20,000 bases of DNA from an uncultured virus (IMG/VR IMGVR_UViG_3300009034_000029) (taxonomy: Duplodnaviria > Heunggongvirae > Uroviricota > Caudoviricetes), in the IMG/VR virus record IMGVR_UViG_3300009034_000029; one strand, given 5' to 3'. Below the pieces are notes generated by a model, which saw only the letters and a list, made by a program, of their open reading frames with translations, was not told the origin of the DNA and searched no databases. The position numbers were made by a program, and so were the translations under genes. This document shows, piece after piece, positions 1-16,032 of the stretch. Every line of letters starts with the position of its first letter. Position 1 is the stretch's first letter.

Positions 1-12
1 ATATCTTGCCAT
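1..12 (-). CDS. 5' end of the next gene (MARY...), runs off the window; by position likely the major tail (tube) protein
   Basis: ATG at 12-10 directly follows the TAA stop of the 13..726 gene, preceded by GAGGTGA RBS; position follows a tail-terminator-like gene. Only 4 codons visible. Confidence 0.4.
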
Positions 13-726
13 TTATTTCACCTCTAATCTAGCATGCATTTTTATAACATATCTCCACTCCAGACCTTCTGTACGTTCAAAATAACCCGGAGTGAGTTCG
101 TCAATTTCAGTTGTCTGAACCGTTCCATTTAATGAACGGTCAGCAACCAACACATCATAAACCTTAGCAATCAAGTCTGTAGATTCTCGTATTCCTAATT
201 GCACGTCATTATTTTTACCATGTACTGCTATTCTAAATTTAGCAAATACAGTATCACCATAAATATTCCTAATCTCTATAGTTGTAGGACTTCCCATAAC
301 ATATGCCGAAGGCCATTGTGTAATAGGTACCTTCGGACTATAACTCACATACTTCAAATCCCCAGACACTACAAGAGGATCCAACTTACCCTTAATAGCC
401 TCCAAGGCTTCTGTAAATCTCCCAAACAACTTCCAGCTCTGAGTAATCGTCAATGTACTAGCCATATCCAATTGATGTCCACCATCAGCATTTGATGCTA
501 CATAATGACCATCAGTCGTTGCAAAAGCTGCAACACCAATTAGGGCTCCTAATATCTCAGTCCGATACGTAGTACCTGAAATAAACCTTAATACCCAAGA
601 CTTGCCATTGATCGAGAAAAGTACCTCACCAGGTGAATTAGACACATCACATTGGATGACATAATACTCCTCAGTCCCACCCGATGTAGGAGTTACCGAT
701 TGATTACTAATCACTGGTACAGCCAT
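13..726 (-). CDS. Putative tail terminator/completion protein with an extra N-terminal beta-rich domain
   Basis: C-terminal ~140 aa fit tail terminators (helix 'EALEAIKGKL', 'WPSAYV', 'LIAKVYDVLVADRSLNGTV'); lies after a gp10-like gene; the first ~97 aa are an additional beta-rich segment. Confidence 0.55.
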   Translation of the reverse strand: MAVPVISNQSVTPTSGGTEEYYVIQCDVSNSPGEVLFSINGKSWVLRFISGTTYRTEILGALIGVAAFATTDGHYVASNADGGHQLDMASTLTITQSWKLFGRFTEALEAIKGKLDPLVVSGDLKYVSYSPKVPITQWPSAYVMGSPTTIEIRNIYGDTVFAKFRIAVHGKNNDVQLGIRESTDLIAKVYDVLVADRSLNGTVQTTEIDELTPGYFERTEGLEWRYVIKMHARLEVK

Positions 727-730
727 TATA

Positions 731-1273
731 TCACTTCCTAAACACAGACTCTATCAAATTTAATATCTCTTCTCTTGCTCTCTTCATCATAGCTTGTTTG
801 GCTTTACCCATCCATTCATATTTCTTCTTAACCTGATGTGTTCCAAAATCTTCTCTTGGAACTTCCATTCTCTTCTTAACTGCAGGATAACCTTTCCTAC
901 CCTTCTTCCCCGGAGCAAGTTTTACCCATTTCGTTATCGTAGGCTTTTTTAATCTCTTCCCAATCTTAGGTACGAACCTACCAGGTGTCTGTCTTGACCC
1001 ACCATGAAGTACCCTTGCATATGGTGCATCTGATGTAAGAAACACATTGTCGCCTTCTACCACATATCTTAGAGATTTGTGAAATCCTCCAGTCTTCCCG
1101 GATGGTACTACTTCCTTAGCCCTTGCGACACCCGCCTGACCAATCCTTTCCAATATTTGTGGTATCTTTGCTCTCACACCTTCAAATCTTCTAGCTAATT
1201 CATTAAAGGTATACCTATAAGTTATCTCTACACCATCTTCAAATGTACGTCCTTTATCAGCCAAACTATCCAC
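731..1273 (-). CDS. HK97 gp10-like / virion morphogenesis (neck) protein
   Basis: Basic protein with 'AKEVVPSGKTGGFHKSL' (P-x-x-T-G-x-L-x-x-S-like) and 'SDAPYARVLHGGS' (YA..vh.Gt-like) motifs; position in the neck module. Start codon uncertain (GTG). Confidence 0.65.
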   Translation of the reverse strand: MDSLADKGRTFEDGVEITYRYTFNELARRFEGVRAKIPQILERIGQAGVARAKEVVPSGKTGGFHKSLRYVVEGDNVFLTSDAPYARVLHGGSRQTPGRFVPKIGKRLKKPTITKWVKLAPGKKGRKGYPAVKKRMEVPREDFGTHQVKKKYEWMGKAKQAMMKRAREEILNLIESVFRK

Positions 1274-1631
1274 TCCAATCTTTTAACTTCGAGACTGGAG
1301 ATGCTGCAGCAGGAGTACCCTTCCAACGTGATTTGGAAATTGACTCTAGCGTCCGCTCAGCTTTATCTCTCAGTATTGCTATATGTGTTACTGCATTCTC
1401 TGGATAGGTACCCTGATCCCTCTCAACCATGGTAATATAACTAGTATACGCCTCAAGAGTTGCCCAGTCCTTAATACAGGCCTCTAACAAATCTATTGGT
1501 GCATTACTATCAGCCTTTCTCTGTACATATGCAGCAGCACTCTTAATACCTTCCGAAATGGTATCATCCGGGATTTGCTCAATCCCTATATTATTAAGCC
1601 TATCCCGAATCATTTGTATTGTCACTGCCAT
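1266..1631 (-). CDS. Putative head-tail adaptor/connector protein
   Basis: 121-aa helical protein with typical adaptor layout ('VTIQMIRDRL', 'IPDDTISEGIKSAAAYV', 'PIDLLEACIKDWA'), upstream of the gp10-like gene. Confidence 0.6.
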   Translation of the reverse strand: MAVTIQMIRDRLNNIGIEQIPDDTISEGIKSAAAYVQRKADSNAPIDLLEACIKDWATLEAYTSYITMVERDQGTYPENAVTHIAILRDKAERTLESISKSRWKGTPAAASPVSKLKDWSG

Positions 1632-1633
1632 GT

Positions 1634-1990
1634 CTATCCCTTCTGCCAGCCAACTAGGAACCCTAATCCTAATCCACCAAGTAGTGGTAATACTATCATA
1701 GCATTTACCATTGCTGCAAACGCATTAATGATAAAGCTTGGATTAGCTGTCAGCCATCCTGAGGTTTTCCCAAAGATACTCCCAACTATGGCTCCTAAAT
1801 CAAACCCAGCATAAAGCATTAGAGCTCCGGTTGCAATAAGTAATACCAACCCAATGGTCATAAAAGCCCTAACTAGTTTTCTCATCATAAAACCTGAGAA
1901 GAATCCCATACCTACACTTAGTATTGGAATTCCCCATATCACTGGATTTGCTGCTATCCATCCTACAATTGACCCTATTATTTCTTGCAT
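1634..1990 (-). CDS. FUN14-family-like membrane protein
   Basis: 'GMGFFSGFMMRKLVRAFMTIGLVLL' and C-terminal 'LPLLGGLGLGFLVGWQKG' match the FUN14 pattern (G-F-x-x-G-F-x-x-K/R-K-L ... LP..G...GF..G.K.G); GAGGTGA RBS. Confidence 0.65.
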   Translation of the reverse strand: MQEIIGSIVGWIAANPVIWGIPILSVGMGFFSGFMMRKLVRAFMTIGLVLLIATGALMLYAGFDLGAIVGSIFGKTSGWLTANPSFIINAFAAMVNAMIVLPLLGGLGLGFLVGWQKG

Positions 1991-2000
1991 CTAACTCACC

Positions 2001-2501
2001 TCATGGTTTCTTTTCTGGTGGTGGTGGAGGAGGAGCTCCTTTAGGTTGTTCTGGAACTATACCTTGCGCTCTTAATGCCATTTCTTCAAGTCTCTTGTAT
2101 TTGGTTTCGAATTCCTCTTGCATCTTTGCTAATCTAACATCGTACTCAGACTTTGACATCCCAAATTTTCTCTCTTTTAGTTTCCATGCACCATAATCAA
2201 CAACCATATGTGCTATTTCCTCAAAGAAATATCCAGTACCAAAAGCAACTATTAATGCCCAATTCCAATAAAAGTCTGGGAATATAAACAATTGCCATGT
2301 TCGGGAGAGTATCTCTCCGCCAATAACAAACACACATACAAATATCCCAAAATACTTATAGTCAAAGTCCTTCAACGAACCCTTCTTCTTTTTAAACCAA
2401 TATGGATAGGCCATCCTGAGTGTTTGTCCTAATAGTAATCCCAACATAATCATCCATGTAGTAAATGGTATTCTTGTCCACCAAAACGGATCTTGCATCA
2501 T
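2001..2501 (-). CDS. Membrane protein (about 3 TM helices) with C-terminal coiled coil and poly-Pro tail; holin/egress candidate
   Basis: Three hydrophobic segments, a charged coiled-coil stretch and C-terminal GAPPPPPPEKKP; GAGGTGA RBS. Confidence 0.6.
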   Translation of the reverse strand: MMQDPFWWTRIPFTTWMIMLGLLLGQTLRMAYPYWFKKKKGSLKDFDYKYFGIFVCVFVIGGEILSRTWQLFIFPDFYWNWALIVAFGTGYFFEEIAHMVVDYGAWKLKERKFGMSKSEYDVRLAKMQEEFETKYKRLEEMALRAQGIVPEQPKGAPPPPPPEKKP

Positions 2502-2511
2502 ATATCACCTC

Positions 2512-3090
2512 TTAATATCCTGGTATGAATCGAACTATAAATTCTCTTAATAACTCAAAGATCAGTACTAAATCAAACGGGAGTTGGATACCCATCATAC
2601 CTAGTAACCAAACTAATGTTCCCGCAAATAATGTGAAGAACCCCGTGACTATTGCTATAAATGCTACTAGAGACCATCCGAAAAGTTTTCCAATAAACGC
2701 TGCAAGAACCCACAATGGATGAGGATCCTTTTTCTCCAACTGCTCAGTAATTGTTTCTGCTAAACTTTTAACCTTCTTCCCAACAAATTCTTGGATCTTT
2801 CCTGCAACGGCTGCAAACATTTGTTCTTTCTCAATCTGTTGCAGAAGTCTTCTCAGTTGTCTCGGCCTTCTCTTAAATTTATTTAAGATCTTAAAGAGGA
2901 GGGTTTGTCCTTCTTGAAGATTGGCCACTTCCCAACCAGCTAACACTACAAATTCTGATCTCTCTGTCTCAGACATACCCGCGCCCTTTTGCATTAAGTA
3001 GTTTAATCTTTCTCTATTCACCTCATACGGAAGTTTAATAACTTCACCGAGTAGCTCCAACTGCTTTTGTTCTTCTGTGGCCTCGCTCAT
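2512..3090 (-). CDS. Membrane protein: N-terminal helical/coiled-coil soluble part plus C-terminal TM segments
   Basis: Charged helical N-terminal ~120 aa followed by a long hydrophobic stretch (LWVLAAF...LVWLLGMMGI); GAGGTGA RBS. Confidence 0.6.
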   Translation of the reverse strand: MSEATEEQKQLELLGEVIKLPYEVNRERLNYLMQKGAGMSETERSEFVVLAGWEVANLQEGQTLLFKILNKFKRRPRQLRRLLQQIEKEQMFAAVAGKIQEFVGKKVKSLAETITEQLEKKDPHPLWVLAAFIGKLFGWSLVAFIAIVTGFFTLFAGTLVWLLGMMGIQLPFDLVLIFELLREFIVRFIPGY

Positions 3091-3100
3091 AGAATCACCT

Positions 3101-3814
3101 CTAAAGCTTTACAATATCTTCGTCTGAGGTTACAACCAAGTTGTCAACCCATAAATCAACGGCAGTAGCAGTCTTAGCTTCCACACCCACAAGTAATTCA
3201 GTATATGGGTCTGCAGCATTTGCCGCTGTTTGAAATTGTATTCCCTTTAGACGTATAACTTGGTTATCGGATATTAATATTCCATAATACCTTTCGTTTA
3301 AATCTGCAGACAACTTAAATGCATGCCAAACAGGAACTACACCTACATTTAATAGCTGTGCACCTCCAACAACATCAACAAATACACCAGCTGTGTTTAG
3401 GTACTGCCACTTTTCATTTGTCTCTCCAAGATATTTCACGGCACTTGTATGTACATTTGTCCCATCAAACTGTTTTAGTTGTATCAATATCTCAGTAATA
3501 TTTGCTGATAGAGCATCACTTGCCCACCAGAATTCTACGCCAATTTTTTGGCTTCCTTGTGGTCCTAAACCCCATGCCCTAGAGGCCTGTGCAACATCAT
3601 CAGCAGCACCAGCAGTTGTTAATTTAAGACTCTGTTTACCCATAAACGCAAGATCTGTACCTGCCGCAATTGTTCCATCAACTGTTGTCCATCTAGCAGT
3701 TATAGTTGTACCGTCCTCCATATCATCCTTAAATAATATCCTTCCCGACGGATCGATCCTATGAAACTTATCTATATCAAATAATATTCTTCTCATCGCA
3801 TCTGATAATCTCAT
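3101..3814 (-). CDS. Beta-sandwich (carbohydrate-binding/lectin-like) putative virion protein
   Basis: 'DDMEDG', 'W', 'GKQSLKL' and final 'LWVDNLVV' strands resemble CBM/jelly-roll domains; the ATG at 3814 sits 9 nt after AGGAG and is preferred over the TTG at 3823. Confidence 0.5.
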   Translation of the reverse strand: MRLSDAMRRILFDIDKFHRIDPSGRILFKDDMEDGTTITARWTTVDGTIAAGTDLAFMGKQSLKLTTAGAADDVAQASRAWGLGPQGSQKIGVEFWWASDALSANITEILIQLKQFDGTNVHTSAVKYLGETNEKWQYLNTAGVFVDVVGGAQLLNVGVVPVWHAFKLSADLNERYYGILISDNQVIRLKGIQFQTAANAADPYTELLVGVEAKTATAVDLWVDNLVVTSDEDIVKL

Positions 3815-3833
3815 GGTTGACAACTCCTAATAT

Positions 3834-3860
3834 AAAAAATAGGGGAGAAAAATCCCCTAT
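3834..3860 (-). terminator. Hairpin + T-run terminator/attenuator after the capsid-decoration genes
   Basis: Minus strand reads ATAGGGGA-TTTTTC-TCCCCTAT followed by TTTTT, overlapping the stop of 3857..4822. Confidence 0.7.
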
Positions 3861-4822
3861 GGACTTAATTTCGCATCGAAGTAATTTCCTCGTGCAGCGG
3901 CCGGAGATATAGATTTTCCAACTTTGATGTTCTCATCCTCTTCTGAACCAACATTAACAGTAATGTTAGTACCAGAGGCAACATCACCAACAAGTATATA
4001 CTCTACAGTATGTACCTCTGTCGGAAGTATTACGGTAGTTGTACCATTCAGAGCTATACAATTATCATACATCTCTGTATAGGCATTACCATAACCAATT
4101 GCTGCGATCTTCTTAGTTGATGCACCTGAAGCAACAGCCGTGACTTTAACATTAAAACCACGGGTCTCACCATCAGGTACGATCATACCAGCTAGCGTGT
4201 TAGTTGCTGTAATTGTAGTGATTGTCAGATCACCAGATGCTTCACGAATAGTAATTGTACCTACTGCGGCAGATGCTAAAATTACTCCTAGTATCTCACC
4301 CCAGTCAGTTTTAACTGTGCTCTTCGGAGACGTACCCGTCAGAGTAATAGTCTCCTTCACAACAGTCGCCGTACCATTCGTAGTTCCGTATATCGTACAG
4401 TCCTGTACATCACTAGCACTGTCCGATATTACCTCTACACCATCATTCGTTGGTTGGTTTCCAAAGTTCCCGCCAGCAGTTGCACTTAATATCTCATCCG
4501 CTTCGTTATCTGCATCGACACATCTTCCACTTCTGCCCTCTTCATAACACTTGATCGGATAGCCAGCCTCTACAGGTTGACTAGCCACTAACTTGGCAAA
4601 ACCAAGGGCAACATTAATACCCTGGTTAACCGTTCTTATTGCATTGTCCGCTTCTGCCCCAATGATATTCTTTGAATCTACTGTACCTACAACAGCCTTA
4701 CCCGAGGCATCTGGTTTGACTAAACGTCTTCCATTCACTGTCCCACCAGCTTCCATTGGATAGTAAGTTGTAGCCTTTTCGAGTTCCATTATCTTCTTCT
4801 CAATTATATATGGTCCTGGCAT
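3857..4822 (-). CDS. Capsid decoration/cement-like protein (DUF2190-like) with a large internal insertion
   Basis: N-terminal ~100 aa (AGGTVNGRRLVKPDASGKAVV...VEAGYPIKCYEEGR) and C-terminal 'KVGKSISPAAARGNYFDAKL' form the decoration-type fold, split by ~190 Thr/Gly-rich residues; GGAGTGA RBS; directly after the MCP. Confidence 0.55.
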   Translation of the reverse strand: MPGPYIIEKKIMELEKATTYYPMEAGGTVNGRRLVKPDASGKAVVGTVDSKNIIGAEADNAIRTVNQGINVALGFAKLVASQPVEAGYPIKCYEEGRSGRCVDADNEADEILSATAGGNFGNQPTNDGVEVISDSASDVQDCTIYGTTNGTATVVKETITLTGTSPKSTVKTDWGEILGVILASAAVGTITIREASGDLTITTITATNTLAGMIVPDGETRGFNVKVTAVASGASTKKIAAIGYGNAYTEMYDNCIALNGTTTVILPTEVHTVEYILVGDVASGTNITVNVGSEEDENIKVGKSISPAAARGNYFDAKLSP

Positions 4823-4858
4823 TGTTTTATCACTCCTGAATAAAATAGGTGATGGCTA

Positions 4859-5842
4859 TTAAGCCACCACATTGTCGATTTTAGATATTCTATAAGAGGT
4901 TGATACCGAATCACTCTCAGGCGTAATTTTGGTATTGTAAAACTGCCTGATTATCCACTCGAATCCAGACCCAGCAACACGCTCTCTCTCAGTAAGAGGT
5001 ATGCGTGTGGTCTGTAATTCACCGTGGGTACCTGTTTCGGTTCCCTTGACAAGCAGATATGCAGAGTCTGTAAAGTACCTTGTTGGATAGAATGCTATTC
5101 CAGATGAACTGGCCATGTAGTCACTTAGTCGTTGCTGAACGTTGTTTATCATGTGTAAGCCTCTCAGCTTTGCATGACATTTCACTGGGTAAACCAATGC
5201 TGTTCGTCTCATGTCATCCGTAGAGACATTAGACTCATCTAATATGTTCTCCCAAGCTTCCTCAATATTTCCAACAATATCCACTGCAGCACTATTGCTG
5301 TTCCATTCCTGGCCAGCTGGTACAGTAACTTGTGTAGCTCCTGCACCTGCAGATATGGCATCGAGGATATTCTCATCCTTTTTCTTGGCTAGCGCCTCTG
5401 AAGCACGTCGTAGTGAAGTTTGGACTTGTAAATTCCCGGTCCCTCGAAGTACAGCCTGATCAGATATGAATAATCTAACCATAGCAGCTTCAAGTGTCAA
5501 TCGGAACGGAGTCCATTCAATGCGTTGTCTCATACCAATAGCTGTTTCTCCCATAGGCCAATCTGCCGTGATCTCACTTGGAAAATCATATCTCACATCC
5601 AGGTCACCAAAGGTTACTGGAGGAAATACTTTTGTTCCAACTGAAATGAACGCAGCAGTTTTATATAGTACTCTCTGCACAACGGCCTTTCGATATGCTA
5701 CATCTGATGTTGCACCACCAGCAGCCATTAAAGACTTCGCATAGCTGTCAATTTCCCCTTTCCAAGCTTTTAGTTGTGCCTCGGAGACATTATACTTCTT
5801 AATAAACTCCGGCTGTTCCGTCAATAAACTATCTACTGACAT
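4859..5842 (-). CDS. Major capsid protein (HK97 fold)
   Basis: 327 aa, follows protease/scaffold and a decoration gene; E-loop-like 'WPMGETA', spine-helix-like 'LRRASEALAKKKDENILDAI'; strong GGAGTGA RBS. Confidence 0.8.
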   Translation of the reverse strand: MSVDSLLTEQPEFIKKYNVSEAQLKAWKGEIDSYAKSLMAAGGATSDVAYRKAVVQRVLYKTAAFISVGTKVFPPVTFGDLDVRYDFPSEITADWPMGETAIGMRQRIEWTPFRLTLEAAMVRLFISDQAVLRGTGNLQVQTSLRRASEALAKKKDENILDAISAGAGATQVTVPAGQEWNSNSAAVDIVGNIEEAWENILDESNVSTDDMRRTALVYPVKCHAKLRGLHMINNVQQRLSDYMASSSGIAFYPTRYFTDSAYLLVKGTETGTHGELQTTRIPLTERERVAGSGFEWIIRQFYNTKITPESDSVSTSYRISKIDNVVA

Positions 5843-5854
5843 TTCATATCACTC

Positions 5855-6289
5855 CTAAGCTCTTCCAAGGACTAATTTGACGTCCATCTTTCCACCGGCA
5901 GATGCACCAACAGCTTCTAATGCAAACCCAATTAGGATCTGCATGTCGGCATTATGGTTTGCTAGAGAATCCTCTCGAATAGTGTGTTTATCGGCGAGTC
6001 CGCCAGACACTACTTTGATTGGATCTCCAGGAACGATGGCAGAATTGGCAGCTGTTACTTTGACTCGTGCAACACCGTCTTGTATCAGTCCACCCCAACC
6101 TTTTATTGCAGCTAATTGTTGGTCTAATATAGCCATCTGATTTATCCCACATGGAATATTCCCAGATGTCCATATCTGCACATTCAGGGCTGTGGCGCTT
6201 GACCACATACAAATATATCCTTCATCATCAAAGTTGGTTTCATCGAAGTATACATTCAGTGGTTCTCCAGGTAGATGTCGTTGTGCCAT
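5855..6289 (-). CDS. Head decoration/cement protein (DUF2190-like)
   Basis: 'QDGVARVKVTAANSAIVPGDPIKVVSGG' and 'IGFALEAVGASAGGKMDVKL' match the beta-clip decoration pattern; located between scaffold and MCP. Confidence 0.7.
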   Translation of the reverse strand: MAQRHLPGEPLNVYFDETNFDDEGYICMWSSATALNVQIWTSGNIPCGINQMAILDQQLAAIKGWGGLIQDGVARVKVTAANSAIVPGDPIKVVSGGLADKHTIREDSLANHNADMQILIGFALEAVGASAGGKMDVKLVLGRA

Positions 6290-6817
6290 TTATATACCAC
6301 CCTCAAATAGTCTCTTCAAGTCAACACCAAAAACATCCGTTGCCGCTTTATCAGATGGATCAAGAGCCGATTGCGAATCAGCTATTCCTGGTGCTTTAAG
6401 GTTCGCAGGGCCTGATACCTCACGAGCCTTCTTCGCCAAGTCAATCATCCGAGTTAGCATACTAATCCGAGCGGCAGCAGGAACATCTTTATATTCCTCC
6501 TCATCGAAAGAAGGATCTAGCTCCTTATATTTCTCATGCAACTCAGTTAGTTTTGCTTTCTCTTCAGCCGCTCGCGCATCAGCTTCTGTCTGTCGCTGAG
6601 CCTGGATGGCCTCGAGATTCTTCTGAAGCTCGTCCACCCGCGAGGTCATGGCGTCAATACCTTCCGTTGTTTTATTCACCATACCTTCTAATTTAGAAGT
6701 ATCTGGCTTTACCACGGGAGGTACACTTGGCGCACTTACTGGAGGAGTTGCTGGAGGCTTTGTAACCTCAGCTCCCTCCACTTGTGTATCCGGTTTAGTT
6801 GTTTCGTCTTCTGTCAT
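6290..6817 (-). CDS. Nested in-frame scaffold protein (internal start M369)
   Basis: GGAGG at 6832-6828, 10 nt upstream of an in-frame ATG at 6817; product is acidic/Pro-rich then coiled coil, like nested scaffolds of lambda C/Nu3 and Mu I/Z. Confidence 0.6.
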   Translation of the reverse strand: MTEDETTKPDTQVEGAEVTKPPATPPVSAPSVPPVVKPDTSKLEGMVNKTTEGIDAMTSRVDELQKNLEAIQAQRQTEADARAAEEKAKLTELHEKYKELDPSFDEEEYKDVPAAARISMLTRMIDLAKKAREVSGPANLKAPGIADSQSALDPSDKAATDVFGVDLKRLFEGGI

Positions 6818-7921
6818 ATGTTGTGCGCCTCCTAAATAGGCGATCTCAGTATGGCTAACTCTACAGTTAGTACACGCAGGGGTCTTAGTTAATGCCCCAC
6901 CAGTAAACTCCATACTCGTGATATCGGGGATTGGTTTGTATCCATTATTCAGATACAATAGCTCACCTGATAATCCCCAATCGGGTTCATTCATAACTCT
7001 CCCTTTCATCTCGTTGTTATATATTCCCCCTCTGACCCACATTTCATCTCCCTTCATGTATGATCTCATGAAGAACCCTATGTTTTTCTCCTTATTATGT
7101 TCGAGGTTTAATGTTGTATCCTCGATTGATTTGTGAGCTAACTTTATCGGTTCCGCTGGATAGTTATTAGTTCTACCCAACATGTCCGTATAGACCCCTG
7201 GTATTAACAGAGGTCCCTCAAATATTACAATGTCTTTTCTTTCAATAAACGTAAACCCACTTAAGGGTACGGTTAATGTAGCCACTTGCATGCTATTCTT
7301 TCCAGTCTGCGGTTTATGTGATGCAGCCCATTTCTTAGCCCTATCCATAGTCCATCCTGCTTGTTTACTAAACCTATAACCCGTAATGACTTTATTATCC
7401 CCACAAGTTGCTCTTATTGCAGCAACTCCCTTAGAGAAGTTAACCCTATGAAAGTCTGTACATTCACCAGATTCCCTAACTCGGTGCCAGATTTCTTTCT
7501 CTTTAGACTCCCAAATAAGCTTAGCTTCCTGAGGCTCTGACAATGCTCCTTCTTCCCATTTAAAGTCTGCATTCCACCCCATCGCTACCTTATTCACGGT
7601 AAGCTTCCCTGTGCCTTTTAACACATAAGTCCCTTTATATGGAGTCTCACCATTCTCTATTGTATACTCACCACTCCGAAGGATATTAATCTTAGCCTTT
7701 TTATCCTTTTTGGCACCTGGTAATCCCGCTGGGATTCCTCCCTCAAAAGCCAACCATCTTTCATGGTGAGGGCCTTTTCTCTTTGCTAATGCATTTTTAG
7801 TATCACATAAAGTCCCACAGTAAACTTCATAACCCTCTAACTTACCATTTTCCTTCTGGAATCTAAAATCCAAATGGGGATCTTCACCCTCAACTTCATG
7901 TAATTGCACTACATACTTCAT
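6290..7921 (-). CDS. Multidomain maturation protein: LigD 3'-phosphoesterase-like domain + unknown module + prohead serine protease + scaffold
   Basis: aa 1-~120 'YVVQLH...HLDFRF...PHHERWLAFEGGIPAG...SGEY' resemble LigD PE; aa ~230-356 carry 'LNLEH' (H275), 'IG', 'GLSGE' (S318) and 'GALTKTPAC' of assemblin-like phage proteases; aa 369-543 are a Pro-rich linker plus coiled coil. Lies between portal and MCP. Confidence 0.75.
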   Translation of the reverse strand: MKYVVQLHEVEGEDPHLDFRFQKENGKLEGYEVYCGTLCDTKNALAKRKGPHHERWLAFEGGIPAGLPGAKKDKKAKINILRSGEYTIENGETPYKGTYVLKGTGKLTVNKVAMGWNADFKWEEGALSEPQEAKLIWESKEKEIWHRVRESGECTDFHRVNFSKGVAAIRATCGDNKVITGYRFSKQAGWTMDRAKKWAASHKPQTGKNSMQVATLTVPLSGFTFIERKDIVIFEGPLLIPGVYTDMLGRTNNYPAEPIKLAHKSIEDTTLNLEHNKEKNIGFFMRSYMKGDEMWVRGGIYNNEMKGRVMNEPDWGLSGELLYLNNGYKPIPDITSMEFTGGALTKTPACTNCRVSHTEIAYLGGAQHMTEDETTKPDTQVEGAEVTKPPATPPVSAPSVPPVVKPDTSKLEGMVNKTTEGIDAMTSRVDELQKNLEAIQAQRQTEADARAAEEKAKLTELHEKYKELDPSFDEEEYKDVPAAARISMLTRMIDLAKKAREVSGPANLKAPGIADSQSALDPSDKAATDVFGVDLKRLFEGGI

Positions 7922-9561
7922 TCTCTCGCACTCCTTTGACCTTGTCTTTGAGTACGCTCATAAGTTGGAAGTTCTGTCCCTGGATCCTGAGTAGCTCTTT
8001 GTCCCCTATCTGCCTGTATCTCTCGTGTAGTCGACGTATGCTTATGTTCCTGAATCTTCTTTGCCCATTCAAGAATCTCTTTCTTCTGATCATCAGTCAA
8101 TGGTTCCTTATTAAACAGCTCTCGTATCTCAGTTGGAGTAAAGTCTCCAGTCTCTATCAATACAGCAGCTATTCTTGCTAACTCAGCTCTATCCTTATCT
8201 AATATCAATTGGTGCTTAATTTCCAACTTTTTCATTAATTCCTGATAACCTTGATAATTCGCCAACCTAAAATGACTCTCGATAAGCTTAATAACTTCCT
8301 TGGAGATGATATCAGCCAACACAGAAGCTCGCATTAACATATAACTATTCGGGAATGTTGCAGCTGCAAATGCCTGACTCTCCCTAGTAGCCATAGCCAC
8401 TTCAGGGTTGAATAGAGAATTATAGATAGATCTATTCAAATTCTCCAACATGGGGTTTGGATCAGTATACTTCATCTTGGGTTCTAAATAACTAGGCACT
8501 ACATTATCTGAAATTACCCAACCCTGTTCGGTTTCCTTCCATCTAATCTTCTTCTCGAAATCATCCAATGCGGTCTGCATATCGGCTAATGCTGCAGTTC
8601 TCCTTTGTGTTGGAGTTCCATCATAAAATTCTGGATTGAATGCTTCGACTTTCAGACTAAATACTGGCCTAGGAACTGCATAATGTCTCCATTTCATATC
8701 ATCCAGTTGCATGTTAAGTTTCCACAGTATTATCTGTCTACATGACTCCAATGGAGAAATTGACCATACACCAAAGGTCCATCTATCCACAATATCAATA
8801 ACTTCACTATTACTCATTAAACTGCAATGGAATATTTTATCTGTAGTAGCCTTATCGGGTTTAAATGTCTGTCTCCCTTCAACGATCTGGGCACCCGTAT
8901 ACTGTTCATTCAACACATATATATTCTTATTCATAATCTCTACATCAAAATGCCCGATCTGAGCTGCATTCTCCACGATAGTCGTCCTTGAAATCGGCCA
9001 AGTCTGCAATCCAGTTATATTCCCATCAATAAGAACTTTCGAGATATGATCACCATGCCGCAACATATCTCTCGCAGCAGTCTCATAAATCAATGGAACA
9101 TCAATTTTCTTCGCGAAGTCTCGTGCTTCCTCAAGGAATTTCTTCTCTGTTTCCTCTTCCTTCTCACCCATCTTTAACCCTAACCCAGCATAAACCCTAC
9201 GAGTCATCATTGAAATTGTATCTATAGCTCCTCTTACCTCAGGATCTACCTGATACATTGTATCATACCCGAAGTGTTTATTCACCGGATAACTAATATT
9301 AAATATAATCCCACGTAGGTTTTCAACGGAATGTAGCAATGGAGGTTCCTTATATGCCGCACCAATATTCACAAACTCCGATAATTTTGATTTCTTACCC
9401 TTTAAACTGGCCTTATACATCTTACTCCATCGATGTTGAATAAACTCCCGATGTTTTGTAACACCATCAATCTCGGGCTCGGGGATTGGAGCAACCAAAA
9501 ATCCCTTAAATGGCTGTTCTTTCTCTGGTTTCGTCCATTTTTCCCAAAACTTCCACTTCAT
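7918..9561 (-). CDS. Portal protein
   Basis: 547 aa between TerL and protease, with ATGA overlaps on both sides; portal-like features 'ARDMLRHGD', 'FGVWSISPLES' and C-terminal 'GDFTPTEIRELFNKEPL'. Confidence 0.8.
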   Translation of the reverse strand: MKWKFWEKWTKPEKEQPFKGFLVAPIPEPEIDGVTKHREFIQHRWSKMYKASLKGKKSKLSEFVNIGAAYKEPPLLHSVENLRGIIFNISYPVNKHFGYDTMYQVDPEVRGAIDTISMMTRRVYAGLGLKMGEKEEETEKKFLEEARDFAKKIDVPLIYETAARDMLRHGDHISKVLIDGNITGLQTWPISRTTIVENAAQIGHFDVEIMNKNIYVLNEQYTGAQIVEGRQTFKPDKATTDKIFHCSLMSNSEVIDIVDRWTFGVWSISPLESCRQIILWKLNMQLDDMKWRHYAVPRPVFSLKVEAFNPEFYDGTPTQRRTAALADMQTALDDFEKKIRWKETEQGWVISDNVVPSYLEPKMKYTDPNPMLENLNRSIYNSLFNPEVAMATRESQAFAAATFPNSYMLMRASVLADIISKEVIKLIESHFRLANYQGYQELMKKLEIKHQLILDKDRAELARIAAVLIETGDFTPTEIRELFNKEPLTDDQKKEILEWAKKIQEHKHTSTTREIQADRGQRATQDPGTELPTYERTQRQGQRSARE

Positions 9562-11060
9562 ATCGTATCAATCCTCCCAACAACAAACATAGGTCTGTAT
9601 ACAATCTCTACTGTATCAAACCCATAATTGACTAATGCTACTGCATCAGCCACATCTTTACTTCCACCCGGAGGATGGTCAACACGTCTTCCGTTAATAA
9701 TCTCCAAACACTCTAATTCCTCGGTTAAAAATGGAAAATCACACACATCAATAGTTCCTCTAACAAACCTCTCTTGGAGTGAATCTTGTTCTGGTAGCTT
9801 TATGATATGATTTTCGACCTGTATACCCTTATTAATCAATTTTTGCTGTAAAATCGGATAGTTCCAAGTATCAAACACAGCCATTTTTACTGGGAATGTC
9901 TCAGTAATATCCATAATAAACTTTAAAACTTCCTCGGGGTTAATACCAAACTTCCTCTCTGGTTTGAATCTCCATATACCATCTATCACCAAAACATCCA
10001 TAGAAAACTTATTACCCGTATTGGGGTCGGTTTTCTTCCAATATTCCCTATGACCCAGAGCTATCCCAAATGCATCTCTCTTGGCTGCAGGGTCTCCACC
10101 CAACACATAAGTATAATCTCCAGGGACTATTCCTTCAGTATTCCCATCTTTTATCCTTTTTAATATATTCTCCCTCAGTGGGTTTATCTTAATCACATCA
10201 GGGTTGGTGTAGTATGGCAATATTGCAGATGTAGGTTCTGCTCCATAATCTCTTAGAGCCTTAGCATAATCTAACCTAAACTCCGTATCGAAGCTTTCCC
10301 TCGTAAGGTTAGGATTGAACTCCCATGTAGCCAATTTATACCCCAACATATGAGAATGTTTTTGTGTGCCATCTACCTTTAATGCAATCGCATCCTTATA
10401 TAAAGTCATTAAAAAGTCATTGGGGTATAAGGGTGAGGAGATAACAATTCGGTAGCCGTCATTTCCGAATGTCTTCGTTGCTCTACCCAACGAGAAATAC
10501 ACTGCCTCACCCGACCGCTTACCAGAGGTGTCTTGGAACCTCGCCAATTCATCGAAGGTTACAATTTTCGCAGTTCTACCCACTATGGATGCACTATTGG
10601 AACCACCAGATCTAATACGCACTCTTTTCGGTAATCTTATAGTATCATATGTTGATTCATACCCGATAAAGTTAAAATAAGGCGACTTTTCAACCTTAGC
10701 ATCAATTTGAGCAAATACAGTATCTCGAGCCTGAGTTTGACTTGTCGCCGTGTTGATAATAAATATCTCAGATCCCTTAGACAATCCCCAATGTGCTGCG
10801 GGATCATCATACTGTTGGAGGCAGAAAGCCTCGTAAGTAGAGAATAAAGCAGCCTCAAATGTCTTGCCGCTCCTCATACCCGCAACCACAACTAGATCTG
10901 TCTTTTTCTCTCTATAAAACCTATCAAACATCTCCTTCTGCATGGGGTATAAAGTTTCTCCCAAGAAATACGGATCCTCTGCAAAGAAAGATGGAGTCTC
11001 AAGTGCTCGCATTTTTTTCAAGGTTTGTTCCTTGTAATCGAGATCCTCCCATCTTAACAT
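9558..11060 (-). CDS. terL: Terminase large subunit
   Basis: Adenine-binding 'LYPMQ', Walker A 'AGMRSGKT', Walker B 'IVTFDE', coupling motif 'ISSP', RNase H-like nuclease motifs 'LGGDPA', 'FDTW' and 'SKDVADAVA'. Confidence 0.93.
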   Translation of the reverse strand: MLRWEDLDYKEQTLKKMRALETPSFFAEDPYFLGETLYPMQKEMFDRFYREKKTDLVVVAGMRSGKTFEAALFSTYEAFCLQQYDDPAAHWGLSKGSEIFIINTATSQTQARDTVFAQIDAKVEKSPYFNFIGYESTYDTIRLPKRVRIRSGGSNSASIVGRTAKIVTFDELARFQDTSGKRSGEAVYFSLGRATKTFGNDGYRIVISSPLYPNDFLMTLYKDAIALKVDGTQKHSHMLGYKLATWEFNPNLTRESFDTEFRLDYAKALRDYGAEPTSAILPYYTNPDVIKINPLRENILKRIKDGNTEGIVPGDYTYVLGGDPAAKRDAFGIALGHREYWKKTDPNTGNKFSMDVLVIDGIWRFKPERKFGINPEEVLKFIMDITETFPVKMAVFDTWNYPILQQKLINKGIQVENHIIKLPEQDSLQERFVRGTIDVCDFPFLTEELECLEIINGRRVDHPPGGSKDVADAVALVNYGFDTVEIVYRPMFVVGRIDTI

Positions 11061-12649
11061 TACATCAGCACTTCCGTTTCAATTTTTGGTTCTTCTATTG
11101 ATTGATCAATCTTATTTTCCTCAACACTCGCAATTATGTAGAATCCTATATCCATATGTTCGATAATCAGATCAGCCGTGAATGATACAAGCTGTGTCTT
11201 TCGTATGCGGATATTTGCCAGATAGGTCTTTGTCATATAACCTACTTCAGACCAAATTATAAGATCCGCAGTGAAAGTCTTTTCTTGTATCTTTAACGTC
11301 CGCATATCTGCAGAATATGTTTCCTCATATACCTTGGCAGTTCTCATATTTGCAGTAAAGTCTTTCTCTATAGTCTTCCTAATTCTTAAATCCGCAAGGA
11401 ACGTTTTTGTTTGAGTCTTACGAATTCTAATATCTGCAGTAAATGTCTTCTCGAACGTTCGCATTGTACGTAAATCAGCAGTGAAGGTTTTCTCAATCGT
11501 CTTACGTGTTCGTAAATCAGCCGTATAAGTTTGTTCTTGTGTTTTCTGTACTCTCAAATCTGCAGTGAATGTTTTATCATACAACTGCATAATCTTGACA
11601 TCGGCATTAAATGTCTTATCCAATGTCTTTCTTATACGTAGATCTGCAAAGTATGTTTTCTCAACTATACCACTAATCTTAACATCCGCTGTAAAGGTCT
11701 TTTCTTGCGTTTTTCTCGTTCGGAGGTCAGCAGTGAACGTTTTGGTATATGGCTGCATTATCTTAATGTCAGCCAAAAATGTCTTAGTCTGAGTTTTCCG
11801 CGTTCTTAAATCAGCCGTAAAAGTTTTCTCAGTTGTCTTACGAATCCTCAAATCTGCAGTGAAGGTCTTCTCATAACCCTTCATTGTACGAAGATCTGCA
11901 GTAAATGTCACAGTCTGAGTCTTTCTTATTCGTAGGTCAGCCAGAAATGTCTTTTCTTGTTCCTTTAAAGTCCTCATATCAGCCGTAAATGTCTTTGTAT
12001 ACGACTGCATGATTTTTACATCAGCAGTAAAGGTCTTAGTCTCAGTCTTTCGAGTCCTTAAATCTGCAGTAAATGTTTCTGTGAATGTTTTTCTCGTACG
12101 TAAGTCTGCAGTGAAAGTTTTAGTCTGCGTCTTCCTAATTCTTAAATCAGCCGTGAATGTCTTCTCATACGTTGTATATCCAGCAGTATAATATACCGTA
12201 ACGGTACATGAATCCTGCCGATAATTGCTTGCTGCCTTACCAGAAATAACTGGAGTTACACGAATCCTGAAACTTGTCGATTTGATATGAGTGGCAGTCC
12301 ATGTTCCGCCCCACAGATTGGTTGGACTACCAACAGTTGCATCTGTCGATGCTGCACAATTAGCTAAAACTCCCTGTGCTGCAGTATTCAAAGCACGCCA
12401 TGTTGATGTACTGTCATACAACTCAACAGTGAACATATCGTTAGAGTCATCACAACCACCATGTATTGTCACTTCAATACCATCGATTGTCCCGGCCACA
12501 TTAACAAAGGCAAAACTAAACTCACCAGATACCGCTGTACCGGAAGTTGTGCTCATACATGCATCATCACCAGCACCAGTGAAATTGCTTTCATTTGTCC
12601 AGGCGCCGGCAGCTTCTAATGTATTAGCATTTTTTGCTTCACTCGCCAT
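11060..12649 (-). CDS. Putative virion fibre/spike protein: N-terminal beta domain + ~24 tandem 14-aa repeats
   Basis: N-terminal ~160 aa Thr/Gly/Ser-rich beta domain, then repeats with consensus KTFTADLRxRKTxE; its stop overlaps the TerL start (TAATG). Confidence 0.6.
   Translation of the reverse strand: MASEAKNANTLEAAGAWTNESNFTGAGDDACMSTTSGTAVSGEFSFAFVNVAGTIDGIEVTIHGGCDDSNDMFTVELYDSTSTWRALNTAAQGVLANCAASTDATVGSPTNLWGGTWTATHIKSTSFRIRVTPVISGKAASNYRQDSCTVTVYYTAGYTTYEKTFTADLRIRKTQTKTFTADLRTRKTFTETFTADLRTRKTETKTFTADVKIMQSYTKTFTADMRTLKEQEKTFLADLRIRKTQTVTFTADLRTMKGYEKTFTADLRIRKTTEKTFTADLRTRKTQTKTFLADIKIMQPYTKTFTADLRTRKTQEKTFTADVKISGIVEKTYFADLRIRKTLDKTFNADVKIMQLYDKTFTADLRVQKTQEQTYTADLRTRKTIEKTFTADLRTMRTFEKTFTADIRIRKTQTKTFLADLRIRKTIEKDFTANMRTAKVYEETYSADMRTLKIQEKTFTADLIIWSEVGYMTKTYLANIRIRKTQLVSFTADLIIEHMDIGFYIIASVEENKIDQSIEEPKIETEVLM
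11160..12163 (-). repeat. Coding tandem repeat, 42-bp / 14-aa unit, ~24 copies
   Basis: Counted 24 units of (K/E/V/Q)T(F/Y)xAD(L/V/I/M)(R/K)xxKTxx in the translation; the DNA shows a recurring 'tc(a/t)gc(a/c)gt(a/g)aa' every 42 bp with many synonymous differences. Confidence 0.92.
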
Positions 12650-12947
12650 CTACCCTCACCATCCTAAAACCACACCCTTTTGGTAAATGGTAAATTGGAG
12701 GAACATGTGCTGGTCTGTTTGGATCAGGAAACGGTAAACATTCCTTCAACCAATAATCATACACCCACTGTGGAATATCTGGTGGCCTCAACCTATCCCT
12801 CTTAACAATACATGCATATTTCCCACCAGGTTGTCCTTCTAAATATCTACATGCAGTCCTCTTAGGATTCATCAACGTTAACGGCGGCTCAATCTTACAA
12901 CAAACCCCACACTGTATACACTGACCCTCTAATACCCAGGAACTCAT
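12639..12947 (-). CDS. CxxCxxCC (YkgJ/FliB-like) zinc- or iron-sulfur-chelating protein
   Basis: 'CIQCGVCC' followed by 'CRYL', 'YACIV', 'CLPFP' and 'GCGF'; ATG at 12947 overlaps the upstream stop (ATGA) and follows GGAGG. Confidence 0.7.
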   Translation of the reverse strand: MSSWVLEGQCIQCGVCCKIEPPLTLMNPKRTACRYLEGQPGGKYACIVKRDRLRPPDIPQWVYDYWLKECLPFPDPNRPAHVPPIYHLPKGCGFRMVRVDGE

Positions 12948-13462
12948 TCTTCTTCGTCCTCCTTTACCCATCTGAACTCCTGCGCACTGTATCCATCGTA
13001 GATATTTGAAAACTTTCCACCTAGTTGTACCGAACCATCTTCATAGATATACATTACACTCTGTAAATTTTTCCCTTCCACTGTCATCTGCCATCCAAGC
13101 AGATACACCGTTCTTTTTGGTACATTAGAAGGTTTAAGTTCTCCATCTCTGCTCACATCTATTGGAGCAAAATTTCTACTCAACCGAATAATTCTTCGTC
13201 CAGGCAATACATGCATAATATGAGGTTGTAGCCTAGGATCTCTCTTCACATTAATCCCTTGGCTTGCCAATACCCATGCTAATTCATCGTCAAATGGAAA
13301 CCATCCTACATACACAGCCTTTGATTGATCAACCTCCTTCCAGTTATGTTGTTTTCCGGTGATAAAATGATACTGCGGAAACATAATAAATCGACCGGGA
13401 CGTTCCTCATCTGGATAAAAGACAATCCAGTAAAAACTCGGTGGGTTGTATCCCAAATCCAT
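12944..13462 (-). CDS. Hypothetical beta-rich viral protein
   Basis: GGAGGTGA RBS 6 nt before the ATG at 13462; coupled to the downstream gene; no recognisable catalytic motif. Confidence 0.7.
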   Translation of the reverse strand: MDLGYNPPSFYWIVFYPDEERPGRFIMFPQYHFITGKQHNWKEVDQSKAVYVGWFPFDDELAWVLASQGINVKRDPRLQPHIMHVLPGRRIIRLSRNFAPIDVSRDGELKPSNVPKRTVYLLGWQMTVEGKNLQSVMYIYEDGSVQLGGKFSNIYDGYSAQEFRWVKEDEEE

Positions 13463-13499
13463 TCCCAATCACCTCCATTGTATTGGTTGATGTTATTTC

Positions 13500-14078
13500 C
13501 TATATCTCATCATACATAAAGGTAAATGTCTCGTCTGGTTGTTCACCTGGTGTTGCATCAGTAGCTAATTTAACTTGGTACACGATAGAGTCACATCTTC
13601 CTGGGGCGACAATAGATTGTGTATCTACAACCATAGCATTACCGGATGAGTTGAATGTATCCGCGTTTGCTACTGCTGCGGTTTGACCAAGATAATAAGA
13701 ATGCCCATTTGTGGCATGTTTAATATCATCTCCAGTCTCACCCAACGTACCAGTTGCTTGATCATATGAACCTTCTGGACACCCATGATCACCAGCATCT
13801 CGTTGCCCAACCTCTAATTGCCCACCAGTTCCAAGGTTCCAGTTAGTCGCAACGTTCCCAGAACAATACCACTTGATGTTTGTAATCTCAGTAAATGTAC
13901 CTGAGAAATTCACACAGTGGTGTTTCCAATAACTATAATTATTCCCTGCTCCTGGTACCTTACATGGGTTGGCATTCACCGGGTTATGATCATCCATCGT
14001 ACAGAACCTTACAGTTGTCTTAGTCGTCCAAGCTACAGTCGCACCATTACCTTCTTGTACATCTGCTGTTGCTGCCAT
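13500..14078 (-). CDS. Putative virion structural protein
   Basis: Gly/Thr/Ala/Asn-rich, all-beta-like 192-aa protein ('NYSYWKH', C-terminal 'ETFTFMYDEI'); GGAGTG RBS; inside the morphogenesis operon. Confidence 0.55.
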   Translation of the reverse strand: MAATADVQEGNGATVAWTTKTTVRFCTMDDHNPVNANPCKVPGAGNNYSYWKHHCVNFSGTFTEITNIKWYCSGNVATNWNLGTGGQLEVGQRDAGDHGCPEGSYDQATGTLGETGDDIKHATNGHSYYLGQTAAVANADTFNSSGNAMVVDTQSIVAPGRCDSIVYQVKLATDATPGEQPDETFTFMYDEI

Positions 14079-14079
14079 A

Positions 14080-14388
14080 TTACGACACTCCTGTTTCTAC
14101 TATATCATGAATATTTCTTTCCTTATGCGGATTACCACCAATAGTAGCTCTCCACTCTATAATATAAGCCCCCAGAGTCATATCATCAGGTACACTCCAC
14201 CAGTAATAATAAACACCTGTACCGTCTTGGGTTGTAGTAAATGGTCCACTGATTTCTTCGCCTCCCTGTTTGATATATATCTCAGGCAAGGCATCAGCAT
14301 TGACAATAATTCCGTTCTCATTATACACAGTACCCTTAAGCTTATACGATGAACCTACCTCAAGCTGTAAAAGTATTGATACTGACAT
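14080..14388 (-). CDS. Small Ig-like beta-sandwich protein (putative virion accessory protein)
   Basis: 'GTGVYYYWWSVP...GAYIIEWRATIGG' pattern typical of phage Ig-like domains; the ATG at 14388 follows the upstream stop. Confidence 0.55.
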   Translation of the reverse strand: MSVSILLQLEVGSSYKLKGTVYNENGIIVNADALPEIYIKQGGEEISGPFTTTQDGTGVYYYWWSVPDDMTLGAYIIEWRATIGGNPHKERNIHDIVETGVS

Positions 14389-14389
14389 C

Positions 14390-14875
14390 CTACGACCCCA
14401 CAACTACTGTCTCTGGCTTTTCTTTCTCTAGGAACTTCCTAAATTCAACCTTACAGTCTTCACATGCATGTTCCAGCATATAGGACTGAAATCTTTCTAA
14501 TTGTGCTTGGTTGTTTTGAATTATGATCATATGATCGGGCATATTCTTTCCTCTAAGTTTCTGTATGTCTTGTGCTAACTGACTGAGCTCACGAATGTAA
14601 TCTTTAATAGCTCTTTCCACACGGGGGTCTATGTCTTTTGTCATTAACCCCTCGAGTCGTTCCTGGACACGGTCATACATATTTTCTAATAACTTAACAC
14701 GATCTTCTACACTCACATATTTATCTAATATATGATTCTTCATATGCATCCAGATAATTTTCGGATCGGCTTTTAACTGTTCCCCGACATCGTGCGCGGA
14801 CAGTGAACCTAATGTCAGTTGCTTCTCGTAGTATCTTCTATTCGGTGCCTTACAAAGCGGACAATTTCCGGTCAT
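14390..14875 (-). CDS. Putative terminase small subunit / Zn-binding DNA-binding protein
   Basis: First gene of the operon; N-terminal CPLC...HMKNH (C2H2-like) around an HTH-like segment, central coiled coil, C-terminal CEDC. Confidence 0.5.
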   Translation of the reverse strand: MTGNCPLCKAPNRRYYEKQLTLGSLSAHDVGEQLKADPKIIWMHMKNHILDKYVSVEDRVKLLENMYDRVQERLEGLMTKDIDPRVERAIKDYIRELSQLAQDIQKLRGKNMPDHMIIIQNNQAQLERFQSYMLEHACEDCKVEFRKFLEKEKPETVVVGS

Positions 14876-14928: not shown

Positions 14929-15059
14929 TATAGGGCTCACAGCATTATATTATATCCTGTTTTGGAGTTAGCAAAAAGAAACTTGTGTTAGCAACACAAT
15001 GTTTAGAAACAGGGGTAATTTGTTTAAGTCAGGTGTTTAGCGTTTTTGCTAAAAGAAAC

Positions 15060-15720: not shown

Positions 15721-15725
15721 ATTGA

Positions 15726-15989
15726 ATGAATAAGCAAAAGCTTAAAAGACCAACAATAGCTCTATTAGTTAAAGAAGGATCTGATTCAAAGAAGAAATCA
15801 GGTAAAATTTCAATGAAACAGTTAAACAGTCTATTAAACAAGTATAAAGTTATATCAGTAAGTGATCTTGCAAACAAATGTAAAGTTGTTCACCAATGGA
15901 GTTACAAGTATTTACAGAAACTTGTACAATCAAAAGTACTAGTGAAAAAATACATGAATGGTAGAACATATTACTTCAGATCTAAATAA
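15726..15989 (+). CDS. Small basic winged-HTH protein (paralogue 1)
   Basis: AAGGAG RBS; 'ISVSDLANKCKV...YKYLQKLVQSKVLVKKYMNGRTYY' helix-turn-helix plus wing; N-terminal RPTI motif. Confidence 0.75.
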   Translation: MNKQKLKRPTIALLVKEGSDSKKKSGKISMKQLNSLLNKYKVISVSDLANKCKVVHQWSYKYLQKLVQSKVLVKKYMNGRTYYFRSK

Positions 15990-15992
15990 ATA

Positions 15993-16032
15993 GATAGTTG
16001 ATAGAACAATCAACTATTTCCCTCTTCTTTTT
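15993..16032 (+). terminator. Hairpin + pyrimidine/T-run terminator
   Basis: ATAGTTGAT-AGAACA-ATCAACTAT followed by TTCCCTCTTCTTTTT just after the stop at 15989. Confidence 0.65.

Follow-up and report, generated by a model that had tools for sequence, protein, structure and literature searches.

Class I holins, for example S105 of phage lambda, have three transmembrane helices in an N-out/C-in arrangement, a charged C-terminus, and a dual-start motif. The lysis genes of phage P2, which are Y (holin), K, lysA, lysB, and lysC, are described in PMC3091744 as lying between the capsid-completion and tail-completion genes, and the lysA product as an antiholin with four transmembrane domains. How archaeal tailed viruses leave their hosts is an open problem; in PMC10791045 and bioRxiv 10.1101/2022.10.18.512658, the holins of these viruses are said to be still unidentified and no S-layer-degrading enzyme to be known, and putative holin-endolysin pairs have been proposed by annotation in some Poseidoniales viruses and in archaeal proviruses (PMC11706807; PMC11705971). 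Here we analyzed a stretch of 20,000 nucleotides (the window) from an uncultured virus of the Caudoviricetes (IMG/VR record IMGVR_UViG_3300009034_000029), in which three consecutive genes at positions 1,634 to 3,090 encode membrane proteins of 192, 166, and 118 amino acids (aa). We tentatively read this three-gene module as a late-expressed, holin-like, membrane-permeabilising cassette, which offers three concrete candidates for the exit of archaeal tailed viruses; the module is an interesting lead and not a demonstrated egress system.

In the mechanism that we propose, the three products would accumulate in the host cytoplasmic membrane during virion assembly and would then permeabilise or break it, as a holin-type timing and lysis device, and no murein hydrolase would be needed because the proposed host has no murein wall. 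The 166-aa protein would be the most holin-like part; the 118-aa protein, with its Gly-zipper, would act beside it as another membrane component that oligomerises, in the part of a co-holin or, on the model of P2 LysA, of an antiholin; and for the 192-aa protein we propose a regulator or adaptor in the cytoplasm, anchored to the membrane. We infer all of these roles, together with topology, oligomerisation, permeabilisation, and late co-expression, and late expression is read from the operon position only. The module sits between the head genes and the neck and tail genes of a siphovirus-type operon, as the initial annotation had placed it, with the major capsid gene (4859-5842) upstream and a Neck1-like gene (731..1273) downstream. 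This location follows from the IMG/VR contig G001 (32.6 kb), which equals window positions 1-3879 at 99.95% identity (2 mismatches in 3879 nt) and continues past the left end of the window with a tail tube gene (Phage_tube_2, E 1.9e-26), a chaperone gene, a tape-measure gene (E 5.5e-31), and then genes for large distal tail proteins. The gaps at the three membrane genes are 10, 10, and 2 nt with no overlaps in the list of open reading frames (ORFs), and because the genes lie 2-10 nt apart inside a string that runs from terminase to tail, they are probably co-transcribed with the late genes. Phage P2 provides a precedent for a lysis cassette at such a place.

The build of the 166-aa protein matches the textbook description of a holin, as quoted in PMC10791045. 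It combines at least one transmembrane domain and a C-terminus that is hydrophilic and highly charged, the features by which holins are recognised, whereas the 118-aa protein has only K117 near its end and the 192-aa protein carries a charged N-terminus instead. On the Wimley-White octanol scale, hydrophobic stretches of the 166-aa protein peak at residues 6-24, 48-66, and 69-87, corresponding to predicted helices at about 6-28, 48-66, and 69-97; on the Kyte-Doolittle scale, no 19-residue window reaches 1.6. The first helix is followed by a KKKK loop, and the C-terminal tail of 66 aa is highly charged (13 K/R and 11 D/E in residues 100-166), contains a predicted helix, and ends in PPPPPP. This charge distribution suggests that the N-terminus lies outside and the C-terminus inside, with the tail in the cytoplasm. 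The AF2 model is all-helical and of low confidence (pLDDT 58, pTM 0.32). A spanin-like role for the coiled coil and proline tail of this protein was considered and rejected, because the charge distribution would place the tail in the cytoplasm.

The 192-aa protein begins with a charged, helical, and apparently soluble part of about 120 aa, followed by a hydrophobic region at residues 122-182, which probably forms two helices, and by an amphipathic tail. Searches among 5.8 billion proteins returned only self matches for the 166-aa and the 192-aa proteins, and scans of Pfam, PHROGs, NCBIfam, and PADLOC gave nothing significant for any of the three module proteins: the 166-aa protein had no family match at all in these collections, the 192-aa protein had only sub-threshold matches in Pfam, PHROGs, and NCBIfam, and the ESM Atlas held nothing usable for the 192-aa protein. 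On these searches, both proteins are orphans.

The 118-aa protein contains 16% Gly and has hydrophobic segments at about residues 18-36, 42-60, and 86-104 and a Gly-zipper C-terminus, which would give 3-4 helices; its AF2 model is all-helical, again of low confidence (pLDDT 64, pTM 0.39). The initial annotation had called this protein FUN14-like and pointed to a Pfam search as the way to check it. That search was negative: the Pfam FUN14 family (PF04930, gathering cut-off 22.5 bits) matched neither the 118-aa protein nor its nearest relative, P0001, even at E<=10, so that the protein falls below the threshold of the curated family, and a six-frame FUN14 search of contigs G001 and G002 gave no match. 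What stood is the relationship itself, in a remote form that profile-profile tests support. A word-indexed search among 5.8 billion proteins with the 118-aa query returned the protein itself and one relative, P0001, which is 89% identical and lies on a contig of 2098 nt. An exhaustive phmmer search of 1.84 billion representatives returned three proteins at E<=0.001, namely P0001, P0005, and P0004, the last of which is a Calx-beta repeat protein that we treated as spurious. P0005 (130 aa, on a 559-nt contig) is 29% identical across its whole length (E 9.7e-4) and itself shows a sub-threshold match to FUN14 (14.7 bits, E 0.042) that covers profile positions 5-91 of 92. The contigs of P0001 and P0005 provide no gene context.

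We aligned the 118-aa protein with P0001 and P0005 (alignment A1) and compared A1 with an alignment (A5) of 7 genuine FUN14 proteins, all above the cut-off, which came from 7 of 81 genomes of the phylum of G003, a Thermoplasmata metagenome-assembled genome (MAG). With hhalign, A1 and A5 matched at a probability of 95.8% (E 7.4e-9) across 88 columns, which span query residues 25-118, and the 118-aa protein alone matched A5 at 82.7% (E 9e-6) over 98 columns. The real score was 51.9, against 11.5 +/- 2.3 (maximum 21.2) for 100 column shuffles of A1 and 14.3 when the alignment was reversed; a further six membrane proteins of the virus, compared with A5, scored at most 17.3, with probabilities of at most 2.2%. 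In the reciprocal direction, the A1 profile matched 8 of 401 genomes of the G003 phylum at E<=0.01; three of the eight matches (G026, G036, and G015) are nearly full-length and are exactly the PF04930 genes of those genomes, and the remaining matches are partial, three of them containing stops. A joint alignment shows motifs common to the 118-aa protein and FUN14, that is, G-x3-G with a basic pair after helix 1 and P-x3-G-x3-G-x3-G-x-K-x-G at the C-terminus. Because the hhalign result, its controls, the reciprocal search, P0005, and the shared motifs agree, the 118-aa protein is, as judged from sequence comparison, a divergent and remote FUN14 homologue below the curated family threshold. In the ESM Atlas, FUN14 clusters also ranked at the top for this protein (features 0.88, with 204-205 of 256 shared; structure TM-score 0.67), a ranking that, by the Atlas tool's own bar, is no more than a lead. 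Profile searches of the Protein Data Bank (PDB) sequences with A6, the combined FUN14-like profile, and with A8 gave no match. Apart from this relationship, the 118-aa protein may contain an internal duplication: W-[IL]-[AT]-A-N-P occurs at residues 11-16 and 79-84, and the two halves align with a score of 46 against 28.4 +/- 6.1 when shuffled, a value reached by 7 of 500 shuffles.

FUNDC1 has three transmembrane helices and FUN14 proteins are known from each of the three domains of life, as stated in PMC5526904. The family comprises eukaryotic FUNDC1/Fun14 and uncharacterised homologues of archaea and bacteria. Like members of this family, which have about 100-120 aa, the 118-aa protein is small and has 3-4 hydrophobic helices; it differs from them in its middle part, where a glycine-rich, hydrophobic segment takes the place of the charged amphipathic stretch of genuine members, and in its genomic setting, a viral structural operon, whereas the seven cellular genes lie among housekeeping genes. 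The neighbourhoods of those seven genes had no common partner and no viral genes. A literature search found no virus-encoded FUN14, the FUN14 titles being on mitophagy and general work as judged from listings, and at E<=0.1 none of the 118-aa protein, P0001, P0005, and 6 genuine FUN14 proteins matched any PHROG. Because the literature search was negative and none of the six genuine FUN14 proteins matched a PHROG, a virus-borne FUN14-like gene appears to be undescribed until now, as far as these searches reach.

The module and the genes around it are listed in Table 1. All long genes from position 13 to 14875 lie on the minus strand in one tight string, and the module occupies part of a variable slot whose upstream border is the major capsid gene. 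The major capsid protein has relatives at 38-44% identity in L002, L007, and L009. The two genes between the capsid gene and the module had no homologues in relatives by BLASTP, and their sole family signal is a weak match to DUF6772 (E 3.7e-4); they may encode head-decoration or fibre proteins. The 121-aa protein that directly follows the module is homologous to L015 1051-1395 (E 2e-5), which itself matches L002 12384-12770 (E 3e-21); it had no family or PDB match and is a putative head-tail adaptor, by its position only. Elsewhere in the window, the start of the protein encoded at 6290-7921, upstream of the decoration and capsid genes, weakly resembles the LigD 3'-phosphoesterase (Pfam LigD_N, E 0.05), and by BLASTP a similar segment also ends very large multi-domain proteins in relatives (L007 10-1524, L002 3220-7296, and L013 4929-7103). 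An AT-rich stretch at 15001-16000 (GC 0.218 against about 0.40 elsewhere in the window) coincides with the end of the minus-strand operon, the start of plus-strand ORFs, and a flip in the sign of the GC skew; it might serve in regulation or as a replication origin. A search for tRNA genes gave none.

Table 1 Features of the window at and around the three-gene module (gene order of the minus-strand string; SD, Shine-Dalgarno sequence)
Feature	Position	Strand	Remarks
Large terminase	9558-11060	minus	phrog_17415, E 1.9e-16; 26% identity to annotated terminases
Portal-sized protein, 547 aa		minus	assigned by size
543-aa protein		minus	middle part resembles protease/scaffold proteins of relatives
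Decoration-like protein, 144 aa		minus	
Major capsid protein	4859-5842	minus	weak HK97-type match: Phage_capsid_4 E 0.0047, phrog_1650 E 2.3e-4
Unknown 321-aa gene	3857-4822	minus	between capsid and membrane genes
Unknown 240-aa gene	3101-3823	minus	between capsid and membrane genes
GAGGTGA SD, 192-aa gene	3095..3101	minus	4 nt before ATG
192-aa gene	2512..3090	minus	ORF with ATG start; orphan
GAGGTGA SD, 166-aa gene	2505..2511	minus	3 nt before ATG
166-aa gene	2001..2501	minus	ORF with ATG start, two Met codons first; orphan
GAGGTGA SD, 118-aa gene	1996..2002	minus	5 nt before ATG
118-aa gene	1634..1990	minus	ORF with ATG start; remote FUN14 homologue
Conserved 121-aa protein	1266..1631	minus	directly after 118-aa gene
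Neck1/tail-completion-like protein, 180 aa	731..1273	minus	phrog_5, E 7.6e-4
237-aa protein		minus	after Neck1-like gene

The claim that three consecutive membrane genes each carry a GAGGTGA ribosome-binding site is borne out by the ORFs, the hydropathy, and the spacing of the sites. GAGGTGA occurs 8 times in the window, where 2.52 +/- 1.62 occurrences are expected, and none of 200 shuffles reached a count of at least 8. Four of the 19 minus-strand genes examined have a match of at least 7 nt to the anti-Shine-Dalgarno sequence, and three of these four are the module genes, which also counts in favour of the holin-like reading. It is highly improbable, in our estimate, that the ORFs of the module are chance or decaying frames and not functional genes. 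Such a view could draw on the lack of homologues for two of the three proteins, and it is opposed by the tight non-overlapping packing with a perfect ribosome-binding site at the right distance for each ORF, by the 118-aa protein, which is 89% conserved on a second contig and related to FUN14, and by the differences within the population. A contig of run X1 that spans positions 934-3385 differs from the module synonymously in all three cases (3/3), although X1 may be the window's own source and does not count as independent support; P0001 departs from the 118-aa protein by conservative changes only. The linkage of the three genes was observed only in near-identical strains, on G001 and on the X1 and X2 contigs, and the module is stable within its own virus lineage.

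Several observations weigh against the cassette reading, and the first of them is a lack of conservation. Relatives were collected by capsid-based scans, and four of them have sequence past the capsid gene, namely L002 (the contig of L011), L009, L015, and L007 (the contig of L008); L010, L012, L013, L014, and L016 stop at or near it. By BLASTP, and by hhalign against the anchored coiled-coil proteins of these relatives, no homologue of the three genes was found in L002, L009, L015, or L007, so the linkage in related viruses to which the initial annotation had looked cannot be shown. In L015, the distance from capsid to adaptor gene is about 0.4 kb and holds one 51-aa ORF without a hydrophobic segment. 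No membrane protein is encoded between the capsid and head-completion genes of HRTV-25, a cultured haloarchaeal myovirus. Scans of viral and genome collections with the 118-aa protein, the 192-aa protein, and A1 found nothing beyond the IMG/VR contig of the virus itself, tblastn matched none of the capsid, portal, and 118-aa proteins to any of 50,697 phage records, and a scan with the tail-tube profile returned only the virus's own contig and that of L002. If the function in egress were essential, stronger conservation would be expected, although great diversity is known among holins; the egress role is a plausible proposal that this lack of conservation weakens.

The content of the slot differs among the genomes compared. 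In the window, it spans 3.2 kb with five genes; in L002, four ORFs in 1.5 kb encode proteins of 138 aa and 123 aa, a 114-aa anchored coiled-coil protein, and a LAGLIDADG endonuclease; in L009, 143-aa, 121-aa, and anchored coiled-coil proteins are followed by a fibre-like protein and a glycosyltransferase; and L007 ends after one ORF of 172 aa. None of the slot proteins of the relatives is similar to the five slot genes of the window. The anchored coiled-coil proteins of L002 (11616-11960, 114 aa) and L009 (about 2149-2433, about 94 aa) are homologous to each other (E 2e-5) and weakly match phrog_937, of the 'hemolysin'/XhlA type (E 0.02 and 0.009, respectively); weak matches to phrog_1193 and to Pfam XhlA (E 0.18) were found for the L002 protein only and the L009 protein only, respectively. 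The presence of such proteins in the slot of two distant relatives speaks for the holin-like reading. By hhalign, these proteins are related neither to the 192-aa protein (probability 0.6%) nor to the 166-aa protein. The L002 protein also has a weak NCBIfam match (E 9.5e-4) to the coiled-coil/anchor end of the S-layer protein SlaB. Thus, the slot between capsid and adaptor genes is variable; a membrane-anchored protein is often but not invariably present in it, and the set of three genes is particular to this virus lineage.

This variability bears on a different explanation, that the module is an accessory 'moron' membrane cassette at a variable insertion site, with a non-essential, lineage-specific role other than egress, such as superinfection exclusion, keeping competing viruses from entering, or changing the physiology of the host membrane. 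HK97 gp15 is an example of a moron-encoded superinfection-exclusion membrane protein in a phage structural operon, and the module resembles such proteins in consisting of small orphan membrane proteins at a variable point of a structural string. We regard this explanation as the main rival, only slightly less probable than the holin-like reading. It fits slot contents that differ in every genome compared (about 0.4 kb in L015, about 1.5 kb in L002, and 3.2 kb in the window), three proteins that are orphans or near-orphans (with self matches, or with relatives at 89% and 29% identity) among 5.8 billion and 1.84 billion proteins, and the presence elsewhere in the genome of other small membrane genes able to serve lysis. 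However, the gaps of 2-10 nt leave no room for a separate promoter, and the GC content of the module genes (0.38-0.41) is like that of their neighbours (0.40-0.44), which leaves no mark of recent insertion or of expression on their own; the module also differs from known moron exclusion proteins in having neither sign, nor any similarity to known exclusion or defence proteins, and it had no PADLOC match. Moreover, early synthesis or expression from a prophage is usual for exclusion proteins, whereas the module lies amid a late structural operon.

The same slot could also hold morphogenesis or entry factors, which would tie the assembly of head or neck to the membrane, in the way that gp40 of T4 does for the portal, or form a packaged channel for DNA entry. 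We consider this quite unlikely. The head-neck position and the strong ribosome-binding sites, as for abundant virion proteins, and the membrane-anchored coiled-coil protein that relatives also carry in the slot speak for such a role, but multi-pass membrane proteins are hard to package in a tailed virion, the module lacks the conservation seen for the capsid, adaptor, and tube proteins, and no structural-protein family was matched.

The search for lysis genes bears on the holin-like reading of the module in both directions. In line with the initial annotation, a Pfam scan of 25 window ORFs at E<=0.1, which covered all but a few small ORFs on the plus strand at 15-20 kb, detected no endolysin or pseudomurein-peptidase domain, and a further 30 ORFs of G001 gave no lysin domain either; together, the lysin search covered about 49 kb of the 67-kb source contig, with about 18 kb outside it. 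This lack of lysin domains fits the reading. On the other side, no lytic enzyme gene adjoins the module, the neighbours being unknown or structural genes, and no holin family was matched (Pfam at E<=10; NCBIfam none; PHROGs at E<=10 gave only phrog_881 'holin', E 2.8, for the 192-aa protein). The cellular FUN14 genes, all seven of which lie in housekeeping surroundings, give no hint of a lytic role. In addition, the lysis reading is weakened because there are other candidate membrane and protease genes elsewhere in the genome. G001 encodes a chymotrypsin-like serine protease of 335 aa (phrog_20754 'protease', E 5e-54; Nal1_C, E 4e-6; L004 94-1101, within a region at 94-2078), directly followed by multi-helix proteins of 113 aa and 147 aa and by an ASST-like protein of 322 aa, for which a single hydrophobic segment is predicted. 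The protease and the small membrane proteins could form an alternative egress cassette, in which an S-layer protease is combined with holin-like proteins. A 126-aa three-helix protein is encoded after the distal tail genes (L005 10692-11072, minus strand; L001 9581-9961), and this gene is followed by a 345-aa radical-SAM gene (L005 9692-10729, minus strand). In the window itself, a plus-strand ORF at 18994-19386 (130 aa) has a sub-threshold match to the NlpC/P60 N-terminal stabilising domain (E 6e-4, 20.3 bits against a cut-off of 25.4), and no catalytic domain was seen in its product.

The host is likely an archaeon. For the family-B DNA polymerase of G001, the 12 listed best matches among 50,697 phage records are all haloarchaeal tailed viruses, at 25-26% identity. 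The capsid relative at 44% identity (L007) lies on a 4.5-kb contig binned into the Thermoplasmata MAG G003. Because this capsid type occurs in only 1 of 401 genomes of that phylum, namely in G003 itself via the 4.5-kb contig, the assignment to a Thermoplasmata host is weak. G001 also carries genes whose set suggests DNA base modification (L004 3579-7813 and 11748-12158; L005 3204-3539), including a PAPS-reductase-like protein, a QueT transporter, QueC, a nucleoside 2-deoxyribosyltransferase-like protein, and a DUF1599 domain; alongside these and the family-B polymerase are a PD-(D/E)XK nuclease, an ERCC4 nuclease with helix-hairpin-helix, and a CcdA-like protein.

A wider proposal would be that FUN14-fold proteins are an unrecognised membrane-permeabilising class, holin-like or viroporin-like, in archaea and their viruses, and that this virus lyses a wall-less or S-layer-only host without a lysin, by means of a FUN14 Gly-zipper protein, a class-I-holin-like three-helix protein, and an anchored regulator expressed from the late structural operon. 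We consider this proposal unlikely. If it were true, it would give a first molecular handle on the egress of archaeal tailed viruses, and it would point to a membrane-perturbing ancestor for the membrane domain of FUNDC1 in eukaryotes. The value of the locus is limited in that the virus is uncultured, the few relatives do not share the genes, and the link to lysis is one of architecture and position only.

Compared with known lysis systems, the module shows three partial likenesses. The XhlA-type proteins (PF10779; phrog_937 and phrog_1193) of Bacillus prophage lysis cassettes combine a coiled coil with a C-terminal anchor, as do the slot proteins of L002 and L009, and the 192-aa protein has the same general layout of a soluble helical N-terminus and a C-terminal anchor; all of these matches are far below significance, and the 192-aa protein is not related to the relatives' proteins. 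The 166-aa protein differs from class I holins in being longer, its 66-aa tail having a long helix by prediction and ending in polyproline, in having no holin family match and no adjacent lysin, and in having no charged residue between its Met codons, but it shares with them three predicted helices, a positive loop after the first, a charged tail, and two consecutive Met residues at the start. With regard to phage P2, the module has no endolysin or spanin, shows no sequence similarity, and would act in a host that is probably a murein-less archaeon; what the two have in common, by the description of P2 in PMC3091744, is a group of small membrane genes within a late morphogenesis operon, between the head and the tail-completion genes, and a pair of a three-helix and a four-helix protein.

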